Part shown: positions 11,497 to 55,457 of the stretch, one piece after another | Layout: each line of letters opens with the position of its first letter | Position numbering within the stretch: the first letter of the stretch is position 1 | Source: a virus | DNA: 55,457 nucleotides | Strand: one strand, 5' to 3' | IMG/VR virus record: IMGVR_UViG_3300045988_047237 | Location: 1 to 55,457 of that record | Translations under genes and position numbers: made by a program | Notes under the pieces: generated by a model | The model's database searches: none | Told to the model about the DNA's origin: nothing | What the model saw: the letters and a program-made list of their open reading frames with translations, nothing else

Positions 11497-12858
11497 ATGG
11501 GAATAATTATTGATTGTTTTGCCGGAGGTGGCGGAGCATCGGTTGGTATTGAAATGGCACTTGGCAGAAGCGTTGACATAGCGATTAATCACGATCCGGA
11601 AGCTATAAGAATGCACAAGGTAAACCACCCCAACACACTGCACCTTACAGAAGATATTTTCGAGGTCGACCTTGAACATTATGTCAACGGCAGAAAAGTT
11701 GACTTAATGTGGGCATCGCCAGATTGCACAAGCCACAGCAAAGCCAAAGGCGGACAGCCTAGGAACAGTGGTCTCCGTATTTTACCTTGGGCGGTATTCA
11801 AGCACGCAAAGAAAATAACGCCGGACGTTATAATTATGGAAAATGTTGAAGAGATACAAGAATGGGGTCCTTTAGATGAGAGCGGCCACCCTATTAAAAG
11901 CAGAGCCGGAGAAGATTACAAAAAGTTTATCGGTGCTATGATTTCACTAGGGTATGTCTTTGACTGTAGAGAATTGATTGCCGCCGATTATGGAGCACCA
12001 ACGACACGAAAACGGTGGTATGCAATCTTTCGGAAAGATGGAAAACCTATTTCTTGGCCGGTTCAGACACATAGCAAGGTCGGCGGACACCTCCCGAAAT
12101 GGAAAGAGTGTGGCGATTATATAGATTGGTCAGACCTTGGAAAGTCAATATTTGGCAGAAAGAAACCGCTTGCAGAAGCGACTATGAACCGAATCGGCAA
12201 TGGATTAAAAAAATATGTGTTTAATTCCGAAAAACCGTATTTTGTTGAAAGCAAGGATGCTTTTTCGTTTTTAATTCAATATCACGGAGAACAGAAAGCA
12301 GGTGATGCAAGAGGGCAGCTATTAACTGAACCGATTAAAACGATAGATACAAGTAATAGGTACGGATTGATAAGTGCTTTTGTAACGAAGTTTTATAAAA
12401 CCGGTGTAGGCCAAGGCCTTAACGAACCTCTTCATACTATTACGACATCTCCAGGGCACTTTGGCTTGGTATGTGCGTTTCTGATTAAGTACTATGGCGG
12501 AGGGACCGGTCAAACAATTGATAGGCCGCTTGACACAATTACAACAAAAGACAGATTTGGACTAGTATCTGTTTCCATTAACGGCGAACAGTACACTATT
12601 AGCGATATTTTTCTCCGAATGCTGAAACCGGAAGAACTGAAGCTGATGCAAGGATTTCCGGAGGATTATATCATTGACCGTGATATTGATTGGAAACCGT
12701 ACCCGTTGAAAGAACAGGTCGCCAGAATAGGTAATAGTGTCGTTCCGGTTATGGCACAAGCTTTAGTCAAGGCTAATTGCTCATATTTAGCCGTAGGAGA
12801 ACGCACTAAGAACATTGTTATAGATACGAGCGAAAAGCAGCTTAGAATTGCTATATAG
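11497..12858 (+). CDS. dcm: DNA (cytosine-5)-methyltransferase
   Basis: Motifs FAGGGG (I), SPDC (IV-like), MENV (VI), QGFP (VIII/IX region) and GNSV (X), in the canonical order. Confidence 0.88.
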   Translation: MGIIIDCFAGGGGASVGIEMALGRSVDIAINHDPEAIRMHKVNHPNTLHLTEDIFEVDLEHYVNGRKVDLMWASPDCTSHSKAKGGQPRNSGLRILPWAVFKHAKKITPDVIIMENVEEIQEWGPLDESGHPIKSRAGEDYKKFIGAMISLGYVFDCRELIAADYGAPTTRKRWYAIFRKDGKPISWPVQTHSKVGGHLPKWKECGDYIDWSDLGKSIFGRKKPLAEATMNRIGNGLKKYVFNSEKPYFVESKDAFSFLIQYHGEQKAGDARGQLLTEPIKTIDTSNRYGLISAFVTKFYKTGVGQGLNEPLHTITTSPGHFGLVCAFLIKYYGGGTGQTIDRPLDTITTKDRFGLVSVSINGEQYTISDIFLRMLKPEELKLMQGFPEDYIIDRDIDWKPYPLKEQVARIGNSVVPVMAQALVKANCSYLAVGERTKNIVIDTSEKQLRIAI

Positions 12859-19303: not shown

Positions 19304-19729
19304 ATGGCAGAATTTTCAACAGTTGCCGCGCAGACTGTAGCGGCAAACAGCAATGTGTTATTCACAGATACAACATCTAGCTGCAACAAGGGTTGTATTA
19401 TGCATAGAGCCGGTAGCGGTCAGATACAGGTTAAAGGTGCGACTAACAGCTGTCGCGCAAAGTACAGAGTAGAGTTTTCCGGTAACATCGCGGTGCCTAC
19501 CGGCGGAACAGCCGGAGCAATCTCTCTTGCGATTGCAATAAACGGAGAACCGGACTTATCAACACTTGCGATTTCTACTCCGGCGGCAGTAGAAGAGTTT
19601 AACAATGTCGCTATGGCAACAGATGTATGGCTCCCTTGCGGATGTTGTGAACAAATATCGGTTAAAAACACTTCAACGCAGGCGATTAGTGTGGCAAATG
19701 CCAACATCACGGTTAATCGCGTAGGTTAG
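19304..19729 (+). CDS. hypothetical protein, possibly BclA-C-terminal/C1q-like fold
   Basis: ATG 19304 after agaggaaag. GAISLAIAINGEP...ISVKNTS...ANITVNR resembles exosporium BclA C-terminal domains (weak, from memory). Confidence 0.4.
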   Translation: MAEFSTVAAQTVAANSNVLFTDTTSSCNKGCIMHRAGSGQIQVKGATNSCRAKYRVEFSGNIAVPTGGTAGAISLAIAINGEPDLSTLAISTPAAVEEFNNVAMATDVWLPCGCCEQISVKNTSTQAISVANANITVNRVG

Positions 19730-19740
19730 GAGGTGGCAGT

Positions 19741-20331
19741 ATGGACGTATCAAGAATGCACGATATGATAGAAAAACTTTCAGAGTGTGCCAAAGCCGAA
19801 CTTGACAAGGGAACAGAGCACATTGACGCGGACGAAATGGGTAAAGTTACAGATATGCTCAAAGACCTTGCTGAAGCTATGTATTACCGTATTCTGACAG
19901 AAGAAATGGAAGAAGATGGTGGCAGACGTTTCTATGACGATTACCGCTATAAAACAACCGGAAGATTTGCACCAAAGGGCAAAGGAACATATGTCGGCAG
20001 GCACGGCTATGAAGAACCGCCTTATTGGCATATGACACCGGAGATGTACCGCGATATGGATAAATCCTATGGCAGAATGTACTTTACAGAGCCGGCAACA
20101 ATGGATAGCGGAAGAACCGAAAGCCGTTACGACACGGCAAAGAGACATTACACCGAAACGAGGGATATGCACCGCGAGAACACAAAGGAAGATAAAGAGC
20201 ACAAGATGAAAGCACTTGATGAGTACATCAAGGAACTTGCCGGAGACATTACGGATATGATTGACGGTATGACAGCAGAAGAGAAAGCCTTGGCAAAATC
20301 TAAACTGTCAACATTAGTCACAAAGATGTAA
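19741..20331 (+). CDS. hypothetical charged (Asp/Glu/Arg/Tyr-rich) protein
   Basis: 196-aa ORF after aggaggtgg. Confidence 0.55.
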   Translation: MDVSRMHDMIEKLSECAKAELDKGTEHIDADEMGKVTDMLKDLAEAMYYRILTEEMEEDGGRRFYDDYRYKTTGRFAPKGKGTYVGRHGYEEPPYWHMTPEMYRDMDKSYGRMYFTEPATMDSGRTESRYDTAKRHYTETRDMHRENTKEDKEHKMKALDEYIKELAGDITDMIDGMTAEEKALAKSKLSTLVTKM

Positions 20332-20398
20332 CTACAATGCCGTGGTAACGCGCATATTGACGTTATCACGGCGGTTTATATGATGTTGGAGGAAATAT

Positions 20399-20722
20399 AT
20401 GGTAATTGAGATAAACGGCTCATTATGGCGAATACAAGCCGTAGACGGGCATAATAAATTATTAATCCGCAGTGACGGTGTATACACTTTGGGCGTGACG
20501 GACAACAATGTTAAAACTATATACATTAAGCAAGGATTGTCTGACCGTATGTTTGATAAAGTTTTGTGCCACGAACTGACACACGCATATGCCTTTGAGT
20601 ACGGATATTTCCTCGACATCAAGACCGAGGAAATAGTCGCCGACTTTATGTCGCTGTATGGCAGGAAGATTGTATATATGGCCGAGGAAATTATAAGAAA
20701 TGTACTAAGGAGGGCATTATGA
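20399..20722 (+). CDS. small HExxH metallopeptidase-like protein
   Basis: CHELTHAYAFEYG contains HExxH in an ImmA/SprT-like context. Confidence 0.5.
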   Translation: MVIEINGSLWRIQAVDGHNKLLIRSDGVYTLGVTDNNVKTIYIKQGLSDRMFDKVLCHELTHAYAFEYGYFLDIKTEEIVADFMSLYGRKIVYMAEEIIRNVLRRAL

Positions 20723-20856
20723 TTGACCTTAAGGCACTTTATGAAAGAGTGCAGAAAACTAATCCAGAAATCACTGAAAACAAAATTCGTGAAGAAATCG
20801 GGAAATCTGAATACGGAGCAAAAGCGCTCATTATATCTACGGCGGATAAAAAATAG
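20719..20856 (+). CDS. hypothetical small protein (45 aa)
   Basis: ATGA overlap with the upstream stop. Confidence 0.4.
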   Translation: MIDLKALYERVQKTNPEITENKIREEIGKSEYGAKALIISTADKK

Positions 20857-20858
20857 TG

Positions 20859-20887
20859 TTGACAAATAGCAAACTGCACTGTATTAT
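20859..20887 (+). promoter_or_regulatory. sigma-A-type promoter of a short transcript
   Basis: TTGACA (20859-64), 17 nt, TATTAT (20882-87). Confidence 0.6.
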
Positions 20888-20893
20888 AATAGC

Positions 20894-20995
20894 AAATATT
20901 AATAGTATCCATTTTGGAATGTAAAGATTTACTCGAAATATATAATAAATAGACACATTATGGAAAAGTCATAGGCTATCTATGACTTTTATTAC
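20894..20995 (+). ncRNA. candidate small RNA: CRISPR-repeat-like 5' segment, ~38-nt unique segment, terminator hairpin
   Basis: No ORF. Predicted 5' end ...attaatagtatccattttggaatgtaaag (to 20925). 11-bp stem 20964-74/20980-90 plus T-rich tail. Confidence 0.45.
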
Positions 20996-21016
20996 TTTTC
21001 GGAGGTACGAATATAT

Positions 21017-21721
21017 ATGAAAGTGGTAAAATTAAAGACATTCCAACAAATGGCACATTTCAGAGACCATATGGCACCGTGCGGAGCAGATTGCTACCCC
21101 TTACCGCCATTCAGTACAGTATGTGGCCTGATACACAATTTATGTCAGTGGACATCCTATCATCCTTTAGACTTCTTTATTTCCGGCAAGGGAATTATGA
21201 ATACCGAGGTCAGACGTGAATGGCAAGGCGGTTATCATTTTAAAACGGTAAATGCGGACGCAAAAAAACGATGGGACGTAATCACGGACGATGAAAACGA
21301 CTCACATACCGGTTGGGTAGGAGCTATAAAAAACCATGCGATGCTTACTGACCTTAATCTGACAATTTACATCAAAGCTGATGATGAGGATCTGAATGCA
21401 ATATACAAAGCATTAATTAATCCTCCGATTTATCCGTCATTGGGCGAATATGGAGATTTATGCGACATACAAAGTGTTGAAATAATCGACTTAACGGAGT
21501 ATGGCGAACCGCAAACCGGAGAATTATCAGAACCGGCGTATATACCGGTAGACAAATTCGGCCGCAGCTGTCTCGGCACTGTTTATTTATTGAATAACCG
21601 ATACACTATTGTAAGAAAGCATAGACGTTTTGAAAAGGTACGATGTTTTTGGGCGGATAAAGGGCAGAAGATAGACAGCAAATTATTTGATGGCGATGCA
21701 CCGATAGTATTTATAGAGTAA
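21017..21721 (+). CDS. cas5: Cas5-like RAMP protein (type I-B Cas5 homolog), orphan
   Basis: N-terminus KLKTFQQMAHFRDH....CYPLPPFSTVCGLIHNLC matches the Cas5 hallmark (AhFR ... sYPlPPpSTv.Gl). Later YPSLGEYGDL..I..V.I and YIPVD...GTVYLLN fit the I-B Cas5 layout. 234 aa. No other cas genes in the window. Confidence 0.6.
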   Translation: MKVVKLKTFQQMAHFRDHMAPCGADCYPLPPFSTVCGLIHNLCQWTSYHPLDFFISGKGIMNTEVRREWQGGYHFKTVNADAKKRWDVITDDENDSHTGWVGAIKNHAMLTDLNLTIYIKADDEDLNAIYKALINPPIYPSLGEYGDLCDIQSVEIIDLTEYGEPQTGELSEPAYIPVDKFGRSCLGTVYLLNNRYTIVRKHRRFEKVRCFWADKGQKIDSKLFDGDAPIVFIE

Positions 21722-21754
21722 AAAATAAGGGATATGCCAAAAGTCATATCCCTT

Positions 21755-22021
21755 TTAACATATAGAATTTTCCATTTTCAGCAAAGCCAACAGCATAGAT
21801 GCTTTCATCAATTTGTGACTCTCATATTCTCTCAATTCAAATGGTGGTTTGCCCTCTTCAACAAAATTGTAATCAATGTAGAGCGTTACGCCTTTTGCCC
21901 TCATAGTAACGACATCTACCATCATATCGCCGCCAAATTCAGCAATATCATCCTCTAATTCCTTGATTAAATCTTCGCATTCGTAGGAAATTCTTTCCCC
22001 TTGATGATTTATTAATGGCAT
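21755..22021 (-). CDS. hypothetical protein
   Basis: 88-aa ORF after aggagg on the minus strand (rc of 22026-32). Confidence 0.55.
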   Translation of the reverse strand: MPLINHQGERISYECEDLIKELEDDIAEFGGDMMVDVVTMRAKGVTLYIDYNFVEEGKPPFELREYESHKLMKASMLLALLKMENSIC

Positions 22022-22071
22022 ATATATCCTCCGTAAAATTTAAAAATTTTTTTTGAGACTTTTTTCGCGTT

Positions 22072-22257
22072 TCACTGGTTTTCTGTGCAATTATTTATAC
22101 AATCAATAATAAATCCATTCAGCCCCTTAAAACCTTTCTTTTTCGCTAAAGCAAGCCACTCATCTTTTTTGCCCTTTGGTGCCATAACAGTTATTCGGTC
22201 ATAGTTTTTTTCATTCCATCTATTTTTAACTTCTGCTGATGTTTTCGACTTTGACAT
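22072..22257 (-). CDS. ribbon-helix-helix (Arc/CopG-like) DNA-binding protein
   Basis: Pattern K..W...NYDRI.V..PKGKK.....A...G.....FI typical of small RHH regulators. Confidence 0.5.
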   Translation of the reverse strand: MSKSKTSAEVKNRWNEKNYDRITVMAPKGKKDEWLALAKKKGFKGLNGFIIDCINNCTENQ

Positions 22258-22286
22258 GGCGTTCTCCTTTTTTTATGAATTATACT

Positions 22287-22330
22287 ACTTTTTAAAGTAT
22301 GTTGCAATACTTTATAAAGTATGTTATAAT
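22287..22330. promoter_or_regulatory. two palindromic operators overlapping a divergent promoter
   Basis: actttttaaagt (22287-98) and actttataaagt (22309-20). TTGCAA (22302-07), 17 nt, TGtTATAAT (22322-30). Confidence 0.55.
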
Positions 22331-22356
22331 AGATATTAGAAAGGCAGGTGCTTATA

Positions 22357-23115
22357 ATGGCAAGTTTAGATACCATTGGTGGTTTACATTATGAAATGAT
22401 GAGAAGATGTTATAATGAGAAATCCATAGCTTATAAGGATTACGGTGCCAAAGGAATTGAGGTCTGTGATGAATGGAAAGACAGAGAAAAATTTAGAAAA
22501 TGGTGTAAAGAAAACGGTTGGAATAAAAATCTACGATTGAATAGAAAAGATGGATCAAAAAATTATTGCCCTGATAATTGCTATTTTGGCAATAAATCGA
22601 CGAAAAAGAAAAATTCTATGTCTCAAATAACGAAGAAAAAAATTAAAGCAAATAAATTAAAAAAAGAGAAAGCTGGAATAATAGGGAAAATCAATGAAGA
22701 TCCGCTTTATTACACATTTCATGGAATGCATTCAAGATGTGAAAATAAAAGCCACTCAAGTTACAAAAATTATGGCGGAAGAGGAATTTCAGTATGCAAA
22801 GAATGGAGTGGAAAGAATGGATTTTTTAATTTCAAAAAATGGGCAGTCAACAATGGGTGGAGCAAGGAATTGTCAATAGACCGAAAAGACAATAATAAAG
22901 GATATTGTCCAAATAATTGTAAATTTTCAACTAGAATTGAACAAAATTTTCACAGAAGAAGCAATATATATTATGAATATTGTGGTGTGAATATTCCACT
23001 AGGAATGATTGCAAAATTAGAAAATATTAAGTATGGATTGTTGTATACTAGGGTAAGGAAAAAAGGAATGAGTGTTGACGAAGCATTAAGAGATATAAGA
23101 AATAAATTTAATTAA
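22357..23115 (+). CDS. tandem-duplicated DNA-binding / HNH_3-like protein
   Basis: Two copies of Y..M..RC.N.....YK.YG..GI.VC.EW.....F..W...NGW......DRKD..K.YCP.NC.F. Family assignment uncertain. Confidence 0.45.
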   Translation: MASLDTIGGLHYEMMRRCYNEKSIAYKDYGAKGIEVCDEWKDREKFRKWCKENGWNKNLRLNRKDGSKNYCPDNCYFGNKSTKKKNSMSQITKKKIKANKLKKEKAGIIGKINEDPLYYTFHGMHSRCENKSHSSYKNYGGRGISVCKEWSGKNGFFNFKKWAVNNGWSKELSIDRKDNNKGYCPNNCKFSTRIEQNFHRRSNIYYEYCGVNIPLGMIAKLENIKYGLLYTRVRKKGMSVDEALRDIRNKFN

Positions 23116-23161
23116 GATTTTATTGCTGTTGCTTTTATCCCCATAGGTTCCAAATTTTCAT

Positions 23162-23188
23162 CCGAAAATCTCGTTTTCGGAGGTTTTT
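23162..23188 (+). terminator. intrinsic terminator
   Basis: Stem ccgaaaa/ttttcgg (23162-68/23174-80), then T-run 23184-88. Confidence 0.55.
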
Positions 23189-23578
23189 GAAAGAAAAATT
23201 TTTCTACAATTTTGGTGCTAAAAATTTTCAATCCCCCCCTACCTTTGTATATGGCACCCGAAAAACCGTTTTCAACATTTTCTCATTTTCGCGTGAAATT
23301 TCCGAAAATTTTTTTCAACAGTTCTGAACGATTTCAGATTTCGGGTACACCGGTCCTACTACTCGGCAGAAGCAAGACACACACCGCCGGAATGCTGCCG
23401 GCGTTCATCTGATCCGGTGCGCAATGGCAGAATTTGCCGCGTAGAATTGTTCGCGAAAATGGCGCAATTAGCCGCTAGACTAACCGGCACAAAGGCGCGA
23501 AACGGTACAATTAAGTCAATTATAAGCCGGCTAGAGTCGTAAGTCAATATTTAATTACAGCCAGGGGAGACCGGCACG

Positions 23579-27010: not shown

Positions 27011-27268
27011 ATGATGTATAACAGTTTGGCAGAAATGCAGAAATCTTATAGAGACCGTGTTAAGAATATTCTTGATAAAGACACCACTTTGCCAGCAAGT
27101 AAACGTGAAGTATTGCAGATATTTGATTACCTGGCAGAACAACACGCGGATGATGTTAGAGCTTGTAACATTCTTGATGAGGTTGTTAAGGCTAATGTCA
27201 GCCGCAGGAAATATAAAAAGATTATGCTTGCGGCGGCTAAAGAACTTATGAATAGGGGCATCGTTTAA
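27011..27268 (+). CDS. hypothetical protein
   Basis: 85-aa ORF after aaaggag; its 3' end overlaps the tRNA-Gln start. Confidence 0.5.
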   Translation: MMYNSLAEMQKSYRDRVKNILDKDTTLPASKREVLQIFDYLAEQHADDVRACNILDEVVKANVSRRKYKKIMLAAAKELMNRGIV

Positions 27269-27324
27269 TGGCAAGACACGGCACTTTGACTGCCGGGATA
27301 TGGGTTCAATTCCCATTGCTCCCG
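27254..27324 (+). tRNA. tRNA-Gln (anticodon UUG)
   Basis: Manual cloverleaf: acceptor 6 of 7 bp, D stem gttt/agac with GG loop, anticodon stem cggca/tgccg with loop cTTTGac, T arm atggg-ttcaatt-cccat. No encoded CCA. Confidence 0.75.
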
Positions 27325-27327
27325 TTC

Positions 27328-27366: not shown

Positions 27367-27640
27367 CCACATGATATATCTGTATTCCATATTTATCATG
27401 AACCCCCTTTCTCCGCTAGGACTATTCTGTTAAGAACCGTGAGAGACGGTTCGGCGGGGTTTGTTCGGACAGAACATTAAGATGTCTGTTTGTGTGCGTA
27501 TCCCACTGCACACAAACGGCATTGTGGAAATCAACCCGTGGTTTTATTTGTTTCCCACGTTCCGTGATAGGCGGATGACATATTATAACTCCTCTTAAAA
27601 GTATGTGGTGTGCAAACGTACGGTTGTTTGCATACCGGCG

Positions 27641-27720
27641 CAAAACGTAGCTTAATTGGCAAAGCAAAGGTTTTTTCATCCTTTCTGACCTTGATGTCGG
27701 TCCGACTCCGGCCGTTTTGC
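27641..27720 (+). tRNA. tRNA-like element with aberrant anticodon arm (pseudo-tRNA or noncanonical tRNA)
   Basis: Perfect 7-bp acceptor caaaacg/cgttttg, U8, D arm gctt-aattggca-aagc, T arm gtcgg-tccgact-ccggc (C at position 55). The anticodon region folds only as 5 bp with a 9-nt loop ttttttcat, or 5 bp with a 16-nt loop. Confidence 0.4.
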
Positions 27721-27727
27721 TTAAAAC

Positions 27728-28330
27728 ATGATTATCTCGGTGCAGATAGGTTTTTCAGCCTTGCCGAGACACGCGAGAAAACGAGATAGGCATAATCGGG
27801 ATACCGGATATGCTAATATCTTTTGCTGTACTGTGAGGTACGGCAGGGAGACGGAAACCGTCAACAATGCTTGCGTGGTGTATCATCATAGAGAAGCCAA
27901 GGGCAGAGGACTTGTGGCTGTGAATAATAGACGCCTACGGTGTAGGAATAATCCGTTGAAGTTCGTGGAATGAGAGACCACGGACAAATCACGGAAAATC
28001 TCAAATTAAGCAGTGTGCCTTGAAACCGGAGAAATCCGGATATAACACAAGTAACTCGTTAAAGTAGCGGTATGGCACGATTTCATTCTAACAATTATCG
28101 AATGGCGAACACGATAATATTCCGAAAGAACCGTGAAATTTGTGGGTATCAATCCCACGTGTGCTTTGAAAGCGGCAAGAAGCCTTAGGGCCGCTCCCAA
28201 AGGCTCGGACTTGTTGCCACAGTGGCAGAATATGGCTGTATGTATGGTGAATAAAGAGAAATCTTAATTATGTTTTAGTTTTTGGAATGGCAAGATAGGT
28301 ATTGTAGTAGTAGGGACTTGCCGTTCCAAA
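27728..28330 (+). ncRNA. candidate large structured ncRNA (~600 nt; GOLLD/ROOL-like context)
   Basis: No RBS-supported ORF. Ten or more helices, including a GAAA-capped stem 28026-30/28035-39, long-range 28015-19/28074-78, and an H-type pseudoknot 28171-76/28190-95 with 28181-86/28200-05. Flanked by tRNAs. Confidence 0.5.
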
Positions 28331-28334
28331 ATAT

Positions 28335-28417
28335 GCAGATGTGGTGTAATGGTATCACAGTAGCTTGCTAAGCTATCCGGCAGAAATGCCGTCAAGGTTC
28401 GAGTCCTTGCATCTGCG
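28335..28417 (+). tRNA. tRNA-Ser (anticodon GCU), type II
   Basis: Acceptor gcagatg/catctgc, anticodon stem gtagc/gctat with loop ttGCTaa, long variable arm ccggcagaaatgccgtc, T arm caagg-ttcgagt-ccttg, discriminator G. Confidence 0.85.
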
Positions 28418-28490
28418 CTTTCACATATAAACGAAATGGAAATATAGTTGTTGGTTATCTGTATTATCCCAAAACCATCTATGTGTGAAT

Positions 28491-42946: not shown

Positions 42947-45900
42947 ATGGCAGATAACGACATTGACCGCTTGAAGATACAAGTCGAAGCCGAAGCGACT
43001 AAGGCAAGCAATGCAATAGACCGCTTGGCTAATAGTATGCTTAAGATGTCGCAAAGCCTTGGCGTAGATACGCACAAGCTGATGAACATTGCGACAAGTA
43101 TCAGACAAGTATCGGATGCGGCAACCGGCTTTAAAGGTGGCAAATCAGCCGAAATAACCTCTTTAGCACGAAGCCTTACCAAATTCTCATCTGTCGATAC
43201 AAACTCGATATATGGGATTTCTTCGGCGTTACAAAACCTTGCAAATGGTATGGCGGCGGCACAGAGTATAGACGCGAGCGGAATAGCCGGTCTTGTAAAT
43301 GCAATATCAAAACTTGGCGGCGTGAAGTCCACAGCCGGAACAGATAACTTGCTCCGTATGAAAGATGACCTTGTGCAATTCATACAAGGGATGAACTCTG
43401 TCGGAAGCCTTAATTTTGATGTTACCGGACTGTCAAACCTGATATACACGGTATCAAGGCTTGGTACGAATATATCAAGTAATGCCACGGCAAATTTACC
43501 GGGAATATCAACGCAGTTACAGAATTTTGTCCGTCAGATGAATGATATAGGCTCTATTAGTTTTGATGTAAATAGACTGTACAGTCTCACAAGTTCAATA
43601 TCAAGGCTTGGCGGTGTTGCATCGGGCAGGGCAATAACAAACATTCCGCAGTTGGCACAAGCGCTTAAGAACCTTATGGCAACCTTGGCGACGGCACCGC
43701 AGGTAAGCAATAATCTTATACAGATGACAAACGCGATTGCCAACCTTGCAGCACAAGGCAGTAAAGCAGGAACAGCATCAAAACGAATACAAAAAGGACT
43801 TGATAACGTATCAAGGAGTGCCACAACAGCGAAAGCCAAAACAGTGAGCCTTGCGCAGGTGTTTGGTAAGCTGTACGCGAATTTCTTTTGGGTTATTCGT
43901 GGCGTTAAAAAATTAAACAGTGCAATCCGAAGCACAACGGATTACATTGAAGCATTTAACTACTATACCGTAGCTTTTAACAAAATCGGTTCAGAATGGG
44001 GCGATGAATTTGCTAAATACGGTTATGACAATGCCACAGAATACGCGAACAGTTTTGCAAAGCGCGTAAACGATAAATTAGGCAAGTTATCCGGTCTTAA
44101 GGTTGATATAGATGCAGGACTTCTTGTTGAGAGCGGTGCGAAAAACCTTGGACTGAACATACAAGAGGTTACGCAATATGCGTCACAGCTTGCATCGGTA
44201 ACTAACTCATTAGGGCAGAGCGGAGAAACAACGACCGCAATAGCAAAGTCAATGACAATGCTTGCAGGCGATATAAGCTCTCTTTTTAATGTTGATTACT
44301 CAACAGTAGCAACGAATTTACAAAGCGGCTTAATCGGTCAATCAAGGGCAGAGTTGTTAGTTGCGTAAACAATGCGAAGTAACTAACAGTACCCACCATA
44401 GCGAAATTGCCAAGTAGGCTATGGATAAAAAGTGTGAAATTAAGCGGGGAAATGGTTTGCAACCACAATCCGAACCGAAGTATATCGGCAAAATGATATA
44501 CAGGGGCAACGCATAGAAGATGAACCTATAATTGAGATATTATAGAATATAATTCTTCCAAGAGGTCACACTATCGGGCAATACAGCACGCAGAGTGCTG
44601 TGGTAAAAAGCTATGCTGGACTATACTGTAATGGTATAGAAGTAAGGATAAAAAGCCTTACGATAACAACCGACTCTACAAGTACGGCATTGATATAACG
44701 AATGCTACATTACAGACATATGCCTATAACTTAGGCATTGAAAAATCCATAAGCGAAATGTCGCAAATGGAAAAACAGCAATTAAGAGTTCTTGCAATCC
44801 TCGACCAAAGCAAAGTATCGTGGGGCGATTTAGCTAATAGACGAAAGAAAGTTTACAGATTAACTTATCTTTCAAGTGTTGCATAAGAATAGAAATATCT
44901 TATGGCAATCGGGCAAAATCGGTGAAGGCTAAGGCTTTAAGCTATGCTAATACCGAGATAACTCAATAGATAGCGAAAGGTTATTGAGTATCGTAACGAG
45001 TAGGAAGTGAATAAATATAATCTTCCCAAGAGTGTCCGACACTACTGTATAAAGGACAGTATGAGGTGGAAGTGGCTACCACCAAACCAAACGTAAAACG
45101 TGGGTGATAATGTACTCTGAACTTGTAGGAAACTATAAGAAGCATAGGATAAAGAGCCTATGCGATAACATGATTGACAATAAATTCGCCAAACAATATG
45201 ATACGTCAGCTTAGTACGAACTTTAAGGAAACCGGAATGGTCTTAGGGCAGTTGTTTATACCTATGCTGCAAAAGGTTTTACCGGTTATCAACGGTGCTA
45301 CGATTGCGGTTAAGCGACTGTTAGTAAACATTGCGTCCCTTATGGGAATTAAGATTGACTTTGAAAGTTTCGGTCAAAGCGGTTACAAAGAGGAAAGCGG
45401 TGCCGTAGATGATGTTGCGGACAGCTACGATAATGCAGCCGCAGCCGCTAAAAAATGGCAAAATCAGCTTATGGGATTTGATGAAATCAATAAGCTTACG
45501 GAACAGAGCGATACAAGTAGCGGCAAAACGGCAGGTGCCAAAGATACACTTGACCTTACAGATGAAATTCTTAAGGCTACGGAAAATTACGAAAAGGTTT
45601 GGAACAAAGCCTTTGCAAATATGGAGAATGAAGCACAGAAATGGGCGGATAAAATTTACAACACGATTGTAAACCATAGGTGGTATGAAGCCGGAAAATT
45701 CATAGGTAGTCTATTGTCTGACGGTGTATCTTCTGTCGATTGGGAGGGTGTCGGAAAATGGATAAGCGATACCATATGCGGTGCCATTGATTTTGTCAGA
45801 GGTTTTATTGACGGTGTAGATTGGAATGAATTAGGCAAAGCCATTGTAGAAATGGTAAACAACATTGATGTTGGCGAAATAATTGTTTCAATCGCCAAAC

Positions 45901-47177
45901 TTGTGTTTTCACTAGCCGGTGCATTACTTGAATTTAATTGGGGAAGTTATCAAGGTGCCTGGGAAGAAGGTGGCGTAGGAGGAGTAATTGCAAGGATACT
46001 TGCCGGAAGTGCTCCTGGCTTGCCGATAATCATCAAGCTTACAACGGAAATTATCGCAAAGATAAAAGACACCGAATTTTTCAAGGCTATTAATGATTGG
46101 TGGGATGATAATGTCCTTCCAAAGCTTGAAAAGGCGTGGGAAATAAATACAAAGATTATCGCCGAAATAACGAATGTATTCAAGAACACCGCAAAGCAAT
46201 TATGGGATAACTTCAAAAAGGCGTGGAAGACTGTCGCAAAAGCCGGAATTGAAATTGTCAACGACTTTAAAAACACCGCGAAAGAAATGTGGGAAGATTT
46301 TAAAGACTCTTGGCTTGGAAGTTGGGTAATCTCAATCGGAAATGAGTTTGTCAATACCGCAAAACAGCTATGGGATAAGCTTAAGAACGAGTGGGATAGA
46401 ATACGCCATAATTGGATTGAAATAACTAACTTACTTAAGTTTACCGCAAGCGAATTGTGGGAAAGGTTCAAAGGAAGCGGTTTTGGAAAATGGGCAATCT
46501 CCATTGTCAATACACTTAAAAATACCGCATCGCAGTTATGGAACAATTTCAAGACGAATTGGGGCAATCGCGCGGTATCTATCATAAATACGCTTAGAAA
46601 CACGGCATCGGAATTGTGGGCGAAATTTAAAGCCGGTTGGAGAAACTTTGGAGTGAGCATAAAGAATGTTTTATTGCATCCTGCAAGTACATTGTATAAA
46701 AACTTTAAAATAGCTTGGTCGATAGCCGCTGCAGCCGGTGTTAAGATTTTTAACCGGTTAGCTGAAACTGCAAGGGAGTTATGGAACAAGTTCAAGGAAA
46801 ATTGGTATAAACTCAATCCGGTACTTAACATCGGACTAAGCCTGATTGACAAGATAAAAGGTCTCAGAGGCGGCGGTGGCGGAAGTGCTTTTGCAACCGG
46901 TGGATTTCCGGAAGACGGAGTATTCTATGCCAACCATAATGAACTTGTCGGACGTTTTTCCAACGGAAAGACAGCCGTCGCTAATAACGATCAGATAACT
47001 ACCGGTATTAGGGAAGCTGTAGTGAGTGGTATGTTACAAGTGTTTGGTGGTATGAATATGAGCAGTCAGCCTAGCCACATTGTAGTTCAGATTGACGGCA
47101 AAGAAGTATTCAGTGCTGTACAAAAGCAGGCAGATGACTTTACGACAAGAACCGGGCAACCGGCATTTTTAACCTAG
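42947..47177 (+). CDS. tail tape measure protein, three exons (42947..44349, 44673..44838, 45177..47177; ~1189 aa)
   Basis: ORF-1 ends ...LIGQSRA, the middle exon reads LYKYGIDITNATLQTYAYNLGIEKSISEMSQMEKQQLRVLAILDQSKVSWGDLAN, and ORF-3 resumes TINSPNNMIRQL. This is one continuous conserved TMP motif. Frames add up (1403+166+2001 nt). Confidence 0.75.
44350..44672 (+). mobile_element. ORF-less intron 1 in the tape measure gene (group I-like, ~323 nt; 5' boundary +/- 6 nt)
   Basis: Stops in all frames; many hairpins (e.g. acagcac/gtgctgt, ctatac/gtatag, gtaagg/ccttac). The 3' end ...ggataaaaagccttacgataacaaccg parallels intron 2. Ends in G. Confidence 0.6.
44839..45176 (+). mobile_element. ORF-less intron 2 in the tape measure gene (group I-like, 338 nt)
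   Basis: The 5' exon ends in T and the intron ends in G. Hairpins cataaga/tcttatg, gataactcaat/attgagtatc, ggtgg/ccacc, catagg/cctatg. Junction restores ...GDLAN|TINSPNN.... Confidence 0.65.
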
Positions 47178-55044: not shown

Positions 55045-55457
55045 GAGTTACAAGGGATTTAACAAAGATATGACTTGCAAAGGATTTCAATATGAAGAGG
55101 GCAAGGAATACGAGACAGAAAGGGCAGAGTGTTGTGAAACCGGATTTCATGCGTGCGAATATCCGTTGGATTGTTTTTCACATTACGCGCCAAATGACAG
55201 CGTATATCATGAAGTAGAGCAGGACGGAGACATTGACCGCAAAGATGGCGGTACAAAGATTGCATCAACCAAAATCAAGATTGGCGCAAGAATAAGCATA
55301 GCCGGAATTGTTAAAGCAGCTATTGAGTACACAATGAGCAGAACTAAAAAGGAAGCAAGCAAAGATGATGATTACGGCGCATCGTCAGCCACCGGTTCTT
55401 ACGGCGCATCGTCAGCCACCGGTTCTTGTGGCGCATCGTCAGCCACCGGAGATTACG
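55034..55457 (+). CDS. 5' part of the wrap-around repeat protein (continues at 1..338)
   Basis: ATG 55034 after aaaggaga; open to the window edge. N-terminus YKGFNKDMTCKGFQYEEGKEYE...CETGFHACEYPLDCF is a recurring phage/prophage domain. Confidence 0.75.
   Translation, partial: MAIKSYKGFNKDMTCKGFQYEEGKEYETERAECCETGFHACEYPLDCFSHYAPNDSVYHEVEQDGDIDRKDGGTKIASTKIKIGARISIAGIVKAAIEYTMSRTKKEASKDDDYGASSATGSYGASSATGSCGASSATGDY

Follow-up and report, generated by a model that had tools for sequence, protein, structure and literature searches.

A CRISPR RNA-like unit upstream of an orphan viral cas5 gene in phages tied to Lachnospiraceae

The RNA unit and the gene it precedes

The IMG/VR virus sequence IMGVR_UViG_3300045988_047237 (here called the window, meaning the whole stretch of 55,457 nt) carries an orphan gene for a Cas5 homologue that is directly preceded, on the same + strand, by a compact RNA unit derived from the repeats of a type I-B CRISPR system. 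The features follow one another in the order promoter, psiR1, psiS, psiR2, hairpin, ribosome-binding site (RBS) and cas5, where psiR1 and psiR2 are degenerate repeat copies and psiS is the pseudo-spacer between them. The element is in effect a one-unit degenerate mini-array with a full-length first repeat, a short pseudo-spacer and a truncated second repeat.

A sigma-70-type promoter occupies 20859-20887 (+), with the -35 hexamer TTGACA at 20859-20864, a 17-nt spacer and the -10 hexamer TATTAT at 20882-20887, just as the sequence-only reading of this stretch had described it, and it agrees with the consensus at 11/12 positions. Both hexamers are unchanged in nine close relatives and are also kept where the adjoining Cas5 is only 52-58% identical. 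Promoter-like matches are no more frequent than background in this AT-rich region (33 seen vs 28 expected), and the promoter call therefore leans on quality and conservation rather than on statistics. Transcription would be expected to start near 20894 (+), 2-3 nt ahead of psiR1.

The repeat-like string AAATATTAATAGTATCCATTTTGGAATGTAAAG, whose end had earlier been placed at 20925, is indeed present and runs for 33 nt from 20894 to 20926 (+). Within it psiR1 (ATATTAATAGTATCCATTTTGGAATGTAAAG, 20896-20926, +) is a degenerate full-length type I-B repeat, one base longer than the 30-nt repeats of hosts. Cas6 of type I systems cuts repeats 22|8, which would place an 8-nt 5' handle, ATGTAAAG, at 20919-20926 (+); Cas5 is the handle-binding subunit of type I complexes. 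The pseudo-spacer psiS (ATTTACTCGAAATATA, 20927-20942, +) is 16 nt long, or at most 19 nt when psiR2's degenerate opening bases are counted in. It is followed by psiR2 (TAATAAATAGACACATTATGGA, 20943-20964, +), a degenerate copy of repeat positions 1-22 that scores 13.4 bits and ranks fourth on the + strand in a 22-nt scan; much better copies stand at the same place in relatives (e.g. TTAATAGAACCATAGTGGA), where the second repeat is unmistakable. At its 3' end, the position where Cas6 would cut, psiR2 shares one base with the start of the hairpin, and because psiR2 stops at that cut position it equals the 3'-handle part of a mature CRISPR RNA (crRNA).

The roughly 38 nt of unique sequence reported in the sequence-only reading thus resolve into psiS and psiR2, leaving a spacer half the claimed length, and the assertion that no second repeat copy exists does not hold. 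Its judgement that the locus is no CRISPR array does stand, since the two repeats are both degenerate, psiR2 breaks off at position 22 and 16-19 nt of spacer separate them. The window contains no further copy of the I-B repeat beyond psiR1 and psiR2.

The kinship of psiR1 was assessed by scanning one genome per species for TGGAATGTAAA recurring at array spacing. The repeats of at least 120 type I-B arrays have this string as their 3' end, and nearly all of the arrays listed belong to Clostridia, Lachnospiraceae, Peptostreptococcaceae, Fusobacteria and Enterococcus; the 30-nt repeats form one family with the consensus GTTTTAATATAACCATAGTGGAATGTAAAT and are separated by spacers of 34-38 nt. A 30-nt matrix derived from 86 distinct repeats of these arrays gives 19.8 bits at 20897, as against 4.7 at the second-best site of the window, which bears out the derivation of the 5' part from a clostridial type I-B repeat. 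Because the matrix includes the search motif TGGAATGTAAA, the 19 upstream bases were scored separately with one indel allowed; they reach 13.2 bits, above the 99.99th percentile of window positions (10.8) and below the maxima of whole-window shuffles. The repeat alignment that had been proposed as a check assigns psiR1 to the I-B family with a best gapped identity to any array repeat of only 24/30 (p ~0.02 vs shuffled 5' parts), and psiR1 is therefore a degenerate repeat and no copy of a known host repeat. Its 3' 17-18 nt (CCATTTTGGAATGTAAAG) are nearer to the psiR1 of host cas-regulating RNAs (ACATTTTGGAATGTAAAG) than to array repeats. The closest match is not an array repeat but the host's own cas-regulating crRNA-like RNA, of the kind called CreR, which the earlier reading had not considered.

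The hairpin and its U-rich tract extend over 20964-20999 (+). The hairpin proper (20964-20990) has 12 pairs, one more than had been counted, and a folding energy of -12.4 kcal/mol (z -4.6) that 0/200 shuffles equalled; stable hairpins with unrelated stem sequences are found at the corresponding site in six lineages (z -3.9 to -5.4). Hairpin and U-tract are likely to be a leaky intrinsic terminator, a 3' stabiliser of a small RNA, or both. The RBS of cas5, GGAGG, lies directly downstream (21001-21005, +), and no promoter-like site is present between the hairpin and the cas5 ATG. The RNA and cas5 therefore make up one bicistronic transcription unit, in place of the self-contained promoter-to-terminator RNA first envisaged, and cas5 must be expressed via read-through. 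An Rfam search of 20800-21050 assigned no family, with matches only at E >=4, and a mini-hairpin (GTAAAgaTTTAC) considered at the handle/psiS junction was dropped as too weak to form.

The downstream gene (ATG 21017, stop 21721, +), which had been called cas5-like, is on the evidence of family models and predicted structure a real Cas5b homologue of 234 aa. It matches the type I-B Cas5b model TIGR01895 of NCBIfam with E 8.8e-23 and 81 bits, below the curated cutoff of 96.7, a cutoff under which the genuine Cas5 of Lachnospira eligens likewise falls (93.9 bits), and it passes the Cas5 N-terminal model TIGR02593 (22.8 bits, cutoff 17.8); a search of Pfam gave no match. Its identity with L. eligens Cas5 is 34% (E 5e-32), and the top Foldseek matches of an AlphaFold model of modest confidence (pLDDT 62.8) are Cas5 chains from Cascade complexes of types I-A and I-B. 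The gene is neighboured by a small M78-like open reading frame (ORF), a 45-aa ORF and an HNH endonuclease gene, with no other cas genes nearby, and it is thus an orphan on a mobile element, outside any cas operon; its product is called vCas5 below. The HNH gene (22348-23115, +; phrog_3377, E 1.5e-63) begins ~600 nt downstream of vcas5 and is missing from the same position in several relatives, and so is probably a mobile homing-type insertion.

Linkage of the RNA to viral Cas5 lineages

A megablast of 19500-23500 against GenBank phages returned nothing, and a search of the genome collection with the vCas5 alignment found no prophage copies. Eight IMG/VR phages with a 94-97% identical Cas5 share the intergenic region at 97% identity, and such near-identical relatives say little. 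A protein search reached phage Cas5 homologues at 81% and at 52-58% identity, in which the synteny is kept: a recombinase/integrase, several small genes, a 107-aa M78-like ORF, a 49-aa ORF, a gap of ~130-190 nt and cas5, with ArdA near one of these loci. The gap of the distant lineages reads -10 box, 7 nt, ATGTAAA(C/T/G/A), 19-27 AT-rich nt, (C/T)TTTAATAGnnCCATnnTGG(A/G)A, hairpin, U-tract, RBS, ATG. The handle of these sister lineages (ATGTAAAC/T/G/A), 7 nt past the -10 box, falls approximately at the transcription start; the AT-rich stretch is a short pseudo-spacer and the motif after it equals repeat positions 1-22, the 3'-handle part, so that the gap would in effect be a mature crRNA written straight into the genome. 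Handle, psiR2 and hairpin are all retained across lineages whose Cas5 proteins are 52-58% identical.

The RNA unit is present at 80/80 vCas5 loci selected on their protein, with the TGG of psiR2 53-60 nt ahead of the cas5 ATG, and this agrees with the earlier proposal that the element belongs functionally with the adjacent gene. The 80 loci represent one phage clade, so the linkage is one of conserved synteny and not of 80 independent events. A search with the RNA motif recovered at least 121 viral units, and among those listed 62 are followed by this Cas5 family while 59 stand alone or in two-unit arrays; the latter indicate that the RNA can work alone.

Units of this type I-B crRNA-like form, and devoid of cas5, were seen in other gut phages (IMG/VR loci L237, L248, L272, L308, L319, L324, L326 and L330), some of them as two-unit arrays.

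Two viral Cas5 lineages lie further afield. Eisenbergiella prophages, on the contigs DWYY01000026 (L183) and DXHY01000010 (L188) of metagenome-assembled genomes (MAGs), encode an orphan Cas5-like protein that is 35% identical to that of the window, with 31-34% identity to host Cas5. Immediately downstream come a promoter of the array's own and two to four repeat units with 18-20 nt spacers, an order reversed relative to the window in that the RNA array is downstream of the Cas5 gene, and the array ends in a truncated repeat and a terminator that adjoin an endolysin gene and a tRNA-like end. The isolated Fusobacterium phage vB_FnuS_FNU4 (OQ808964; L352 1400-1500) has, ahead of the gene for its annotated Cas5-like protein FNU4_61 (355 aa), the string ATTTCCATATTGGAAG and then a hairpin, a U-tract and an RBS; ATTTCCATATTGGAAG is a partial type I-B repeat positioned like psiR2 of the window. 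In all, repeat-derived RNA elements adjoin three separate viral Cas5 lineages.

Could the unit have no RNA function at all, serving as promoter, 5' untranslated region and terminator or attenuator of cas5, with the repeat likeness a relic of cas5 capture? The 107-nt RNA outside its hairpin shows no notable fold relative to shuffles (z -1.66), and promoter-like matches are common in the AT-rich region, two points in favour of this reading. However, cas5 comes after cas7 in host operons, so that co-capture of a repeat with cas5 does not explain their adjacency; moreover, the handle and psiR2 are conserved although the sequence between and after them changes, and the same architecture is found, with cas5 absent, at the 59 viral loci as well as in cas loci of hosts. 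This explanation is accordingly held to be very improbable.

The strict linkage and its fixed spacing invite another possibility, namely that the RNA exists chiefly as the cognate RNA of vCas5, which would bind the phage handle and either nucleate a phage-programmed mini-complex from host Cas7 and Cas8b or protect the RNA, the pair being the functional unit. That Cas5 is the handle-binding subunit is established, the Eisenbergiella and FNU4 proteins also adjoin RNA elements derived from I-B repeats, and every vCas5 examined has the RNA even though 59 of the at least 121 viral units lack vCas5. Yet adjacency is equally expected of any anti-defence cluster, the FNU4 element is a single short match, and the Listeria Cas5 homologue AcrIB3 has been reported without such an RNA. 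A guide specific to vCas5 seems rather unlikely as the principal explanation.

Host counterparts and the host of the phage

Counterparts in hosts were sought with the pattern ATGTAAA-N16-33-TTAATAGNNNCATNNTGG, that is, a handle, a short gap and a repeat start, which normal arrays cannot match. The scan yielded 55 loci with ~25 clean units in Lachnospiraceae and their relatives, several of them on the same contigs as type I-B arrays. At no fewer than 19 loci of Lachnospiraceae and other Clostridia (L150-L201) the RNA unit lies divergently upstream of cas6-cas8b-cas7-cas5, and at 16 distinct loci the opposite strand repeats the first 10 nt of psiS no more than 200 nt upstream, right after a protospacer-adjacent motif (PAM; CCA at 12 and CCT at 4 of these sites). 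Every sixth base is flipped out when type I Cascade pairs with its target, and mismatches are thus to be expected at positions 6, 12 and 18. The counts observed at positions 1-18 over the 16 loci were 0,0,0,0,0,5,0,0,0,0,2,11,0,0,2,0,6,10, which confines mismatches within psiS positions 1-16 almost entirely to 6 and 12, with more at 17 and 18. By their sequence and placement these host RNAs are identified as cas-regulating crRNA-like RNAs of the CreR kind (10.1101/2023.03.10.532045). In L. eligens, for example, the site CCA-AATTGATAATTtATATTGACA matched by the unit at L155 5161-5216 reaches into the -35 box of the TTGACA-17-TAATAT promoter before cas6.

A sister lineage of the window's phage has copied such a guide. 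The commonest viral psiS, AATTGATAATTAATATATC..., occurs in 49/80 vCas5 loci (the L020/L145 lineage) and equals the L. eligens CreR psiS over 17 nt; against the cas6-promoter site of L. eligens, the CCA and positions 1-11 and 13-16 match. Viral units without cas5 likewise match the promoter sites of Butyribacter intestini (L172) and of L190. Cracr RNAs, the viral CRISPR-like regulatory anti-CRISPR RNAs, are recognised by nine or more PAM-proximal matches to a CreA/R pseudo-spacer (10.1101/2024.10.29.618823), and L020/L145 shares at least that number with a host CreR/CreA guide or cas promoter.

At the level of individual cas5-less units, the psiS of L322 is identical to that of the host cas-regulating RNA at L190, and those of L316 and L326 are close to that at L172.

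The psiS of the window itself belongs to a minority allele group (7/80 vCas5 loci). Its first 7 nt are fixed among nine close relatives, positions 8, 9, 12 and 13 vary, and of the 14 variable columns in the intergenic alignment (172 nt) 4 fall within its 16 nt (p 0.03). Such variation fits either the tracking of target alleles or relaxed constraint.

Only one host link was found for the phage. A spacer in a type I-B array of Coprococcus sp. (a MAG from water deer rectum) matches window positions 12001-12035 at 30/35, and so links this group of phages to Lachnospiraceae whose arrays use the same repeat family. The phage genome is circularly closed at ~55 kb, because the window's ends overlap: 27-nt tandem coding repeats (GGCGCATCGTCAGCCACCGG...) are found at 9-140 and at 55349-55453, and they lie in one gene that spans the junction. 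Elsewhere a full-length ROOL RNA (RF03087, 363 bits; 27712-28285, +) is set within a tRNA-Gln/tRNA-Lys/tRNA-Ser cluster (27253-27325, 27640-27721 and 28335-28418), and an ORF of 667 aa (45174-47177) contains, at 46185-46805, a 42-nt unit in six diverged copies, set apart by multiples of ~81-87 nt, and looks like a repeat-domain structural protein.

Proposed action and relation to known anti-CRISPRs

There is reason to think that the RNA-Cas5 pair most likely turns the host CRISPR machinery against itself, and the model considered probable joins a type I-B crRNA mimic, made in excess by means of a leaky terminator, to a protein that reinforces it. Given the layout, transcripts starting at ~20894 would mostly be halted at the hairpin and U-tract, giving small RNA in excess, while read-through would express vCas5. 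Host Cas6 would trim psiR1 to leave the handle ATGTAAAG, a step that the sister lineages may bypass because their transcription is predicted to begin at the handle. By analogy with Racr (RNA anti-CRISPRs made of solitary repeat units) and Cracr, host Cas5 and Cas7, or vCas5, could then load onto the handle and the 16-19 nt psiS, giving a small Cascade-like complex in competition with real crRNAs for Cas proteins. Such a complex might bind a short PAM-flanked match and repress transcription without Cas3 cleavage, most likely at the promoter of the host cas6 operon; for a promoter match of this kind the sequences that speak are those of the host CreR-like RNAs and of the sister phage lineage, and not the psiS of the window. 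Lastly vCas5, judged by homology, may act in the manner of AcrIB3 as a faulty or altered Cascade subunit that strengthens the block.

Several observations weigh against this model. In the window psiR2 is weak, psiS is very short (16-19 nt) and psiR1 reaches no more than 24/30 identity with its best array repeat, and the one-clade origin of the vCas5 loci means that the linkage reflects common descent as well as selection. In addition, searches for a target of the window's psiS came back empty. The fetched host loci held neither a CreR with an ATTTACT... seed nor a PAM-flanked target; scans of the genome collection gave three chance matches only for ATGTAAANATTTACT...AATAGNNNCAT and, for TTGGRATGTAAANATTTACT, 24 listed matches of which none was CreR-like; metagenome scans gave 0 matches both for the paired target and CreR pattern and for arrays with CCATTTTGGAATGTAAA; and psiS has no self-target within the window. 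The protospacer comparison that the sequence-only reading had recommended, here made against 50,697 phage and 72,556 plasmid records, produced only low-complexity matches (E >=0.02). Two candidates were also set aside, a 20/23 match in Longibaculum that sits between convergent genes and is put down to chance, and a CCA followed by a 12-nt match in Pelosinus that is inside a coding region and at chance level. Finally, an AcrIB3-like block of DNA binding by vCas5 would work against the co-encoded guide, a tension for which the precedent of AcrIF24 and Cracr, in which the anti-CRISPR (Acr) protein spares short-guide complexes, suggests a way out.

The empty target searches are what would be seen if the RNA were a pure decoy without a DNA target, one that soaks up Cas6, Cas7 and Cas5 in aberrant sub-complexes and in which psiS is mere filler. 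It is consistent with a decoy that psiS is AT-rich, short and the most variable part of the intergenic region, and that FNU4 has merely a partial repeat and a hairpin ahead of its Cas5-like gene; Racr RNAs do act in this way (PMC10651486). On the other hand, the layout of two repeats and a short spacer is that of host cas-regulating RNAs, sister lineages carry a psiS taken from host guides that fits the cas6 promoter beside its PAM, and the first 7 nt of psiS are invariant in window-type relatives; the host collections searched are, besides, incomplete. A decoy acting without any target is possible, though the balance of evidence makes it unlikely.

The psiS might alternatively direct host Cascade to destroy or silence rival phages or plasmids, a role in which virus-borne mini-arrays are known (PMC11656645). 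Its 16-19 nt compare poorly, however, with the 34-38 nt of interference-competent spacers, the phage and plasmid records hold no protospacer for it, and it is nearly fixed inside each lineage, all of which leaves inter-virus conflict with hardly any probability.

More tentatively, RNA and protein may form one device, in which vCas5 captures the phage handle and seeds a cleavage-incompetent mini-Cascade from host Cas7 and Cas8b. The phage would then supply both the guide and the reader of its handle, outcompete host crRNAs, silence defence promoters and poison ordinary Cascade, and the repeated pairing would follow from this; the idea is held to be doubtful.

The favoured model, a crRNA mimic reinforced by vCas5, places the element among anti-CRISPR RNAs and viral mini-arrays. 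The sequence-only reading had proposed a solitary repeat, a mini-array or an anti-CRISPR decoy, and so had the right area, although a unit with both psiR1 and psiR2 is not solitary. The nearest relatives in design are the host CreR/CreA RNAs, crRNA-like RNAs that regulate cas genes (Liu et al., 10.1101/2023.03.10.532045), which share the architecture and the partial, PAM-flanked match at a cas promoter, found here at 16 or more Lachnospiraceae and Clostridia loci; these differ in being chromosomal, in or beside the cas locus, and in serving the host, whereas the present element is phage-borne and adjoins an orphan cas5.

Among viral elements, Cracr RNAs have been developed experimentally for types V-A, I-E and I-F, with type I-B candidates listed, and they synergise with co-encoded Acr proteins (Liu et al., 10.1101/2024.10.29.618823). 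Like them, the element is virus-encoded and outside a cas locus, and it joins a short pseudo-spacer to degenerate repeat(s) and a rho-independent terminator; Cracr RNAs copy host CreR/CreA guides, are predicted to redirect Cas proteins to cas promoters and often adjoin a protein Acr. It differs in that a guide match of at least 9 nt was found for the sister lineage and not for the window's psiS, in that sister lineages would begin transcription at the handle, and in that the partner is a Cas5 homologue, 'Cas5' being absent from the Cracr paper. The relation of L020/L145 to its host guide was already described for phages of Clostridium perfringens and a Fusobacterium virus that copy type I-B regulatory mini-arrays, where the host mini-array upstream of cas6 targets the region between itself and cas6, beside an I-B PAM (Shmakov et al. 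2023, 10.1101/2023.03.03.530964 / PMC10120712). There, just as between L. eligens and L020/L145, the seed is common to host and phage and the spacer of the phage copy is shorter; here, however, the host clade is Lachnospiraceae, the neighbour is a Cas5 rather than an AcrIF23-like protein, and no host counterpart was identified for the window variant.

The Racr RNAs, such as that of the racrIC1-acrIC5 bicistron, are RNA anti-CRISPRs, each made of a repeat unit that stands alone (Camara-Wilpert et al. 2023, PMC10651486). The likeness to them lies in a promoter-driven repeat mimic in a phage that can be bicistronic with an acr gene and competes for Cas proteins, and the element does resemble the repeat of a host system from within a viral genome (19.8 bits, 24/30, and the Coprococcus spacer at 30/35). 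Racrs are nevertheless single repeats without guide function, as opposed to two repeat copies and a pseudo-spacer, and a type I-B Racr is not described in PMC10651486.

For the protein, the precedent is AcrIB3, a Cas5 homologue from Listeria with type I-B anti-CRISPR activity, which was described together with orphan viral cas genes and is reported to stop Cascade from binding DNA (Katz et al., 10.1101/2023.06.24.545427). Like AcrIB3, vCas5 is a full-length Cas5b homologue with ~34-38% identity to host Cas5, and its orphan gene sits in an accessory or anti-defence part of a mobile element. The two probably differ in protein family, the only Listeria tblastn match to vCas5 being a genuine cas operon, and no repeat-like RNA was reported with AcrIB3. 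That Listeria match, labelled as 'phage', had been considered as an AcrIB3-type orphan and was rejected, as a Cas7-like coding region lies upstream and the record is unverified.

A Cas5 homologue paired with a crRNA mimic is not mentioned in the searched literature on Racr, Cracr, viral mini-arrays and AcrIB3, with the Cracr supplementary tables outside that scope. Both components are thus of anti-CRISPR kinds recently described (2023-2024), and the new part is the fixed and recurrent pairing of the RNA with a viral Cas5. The host loci expose a widespread circuit in Lachnospiraceae and other Clostridia, in which a crRNA-like RNA matches the cas6 promoter with a 6-nt mismatch periodicity. RNA anti-CRISPRs and viral cas homologues are two recent counter-defence strategies, described separately, and across a large family of gut Lachnospiraceae phages they are joined in one conserved transcription unit. 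If the pairing is not functional, the element would be one more member of the Cracr/viral mini-array class; if it is functional, it would offer a direct test of cooperation between a Cas5 mimic and a guide mimic, and would also supply compact scaffolds of natural origin with which to apply type I-B CRISPR interference in gut Firmicutes.

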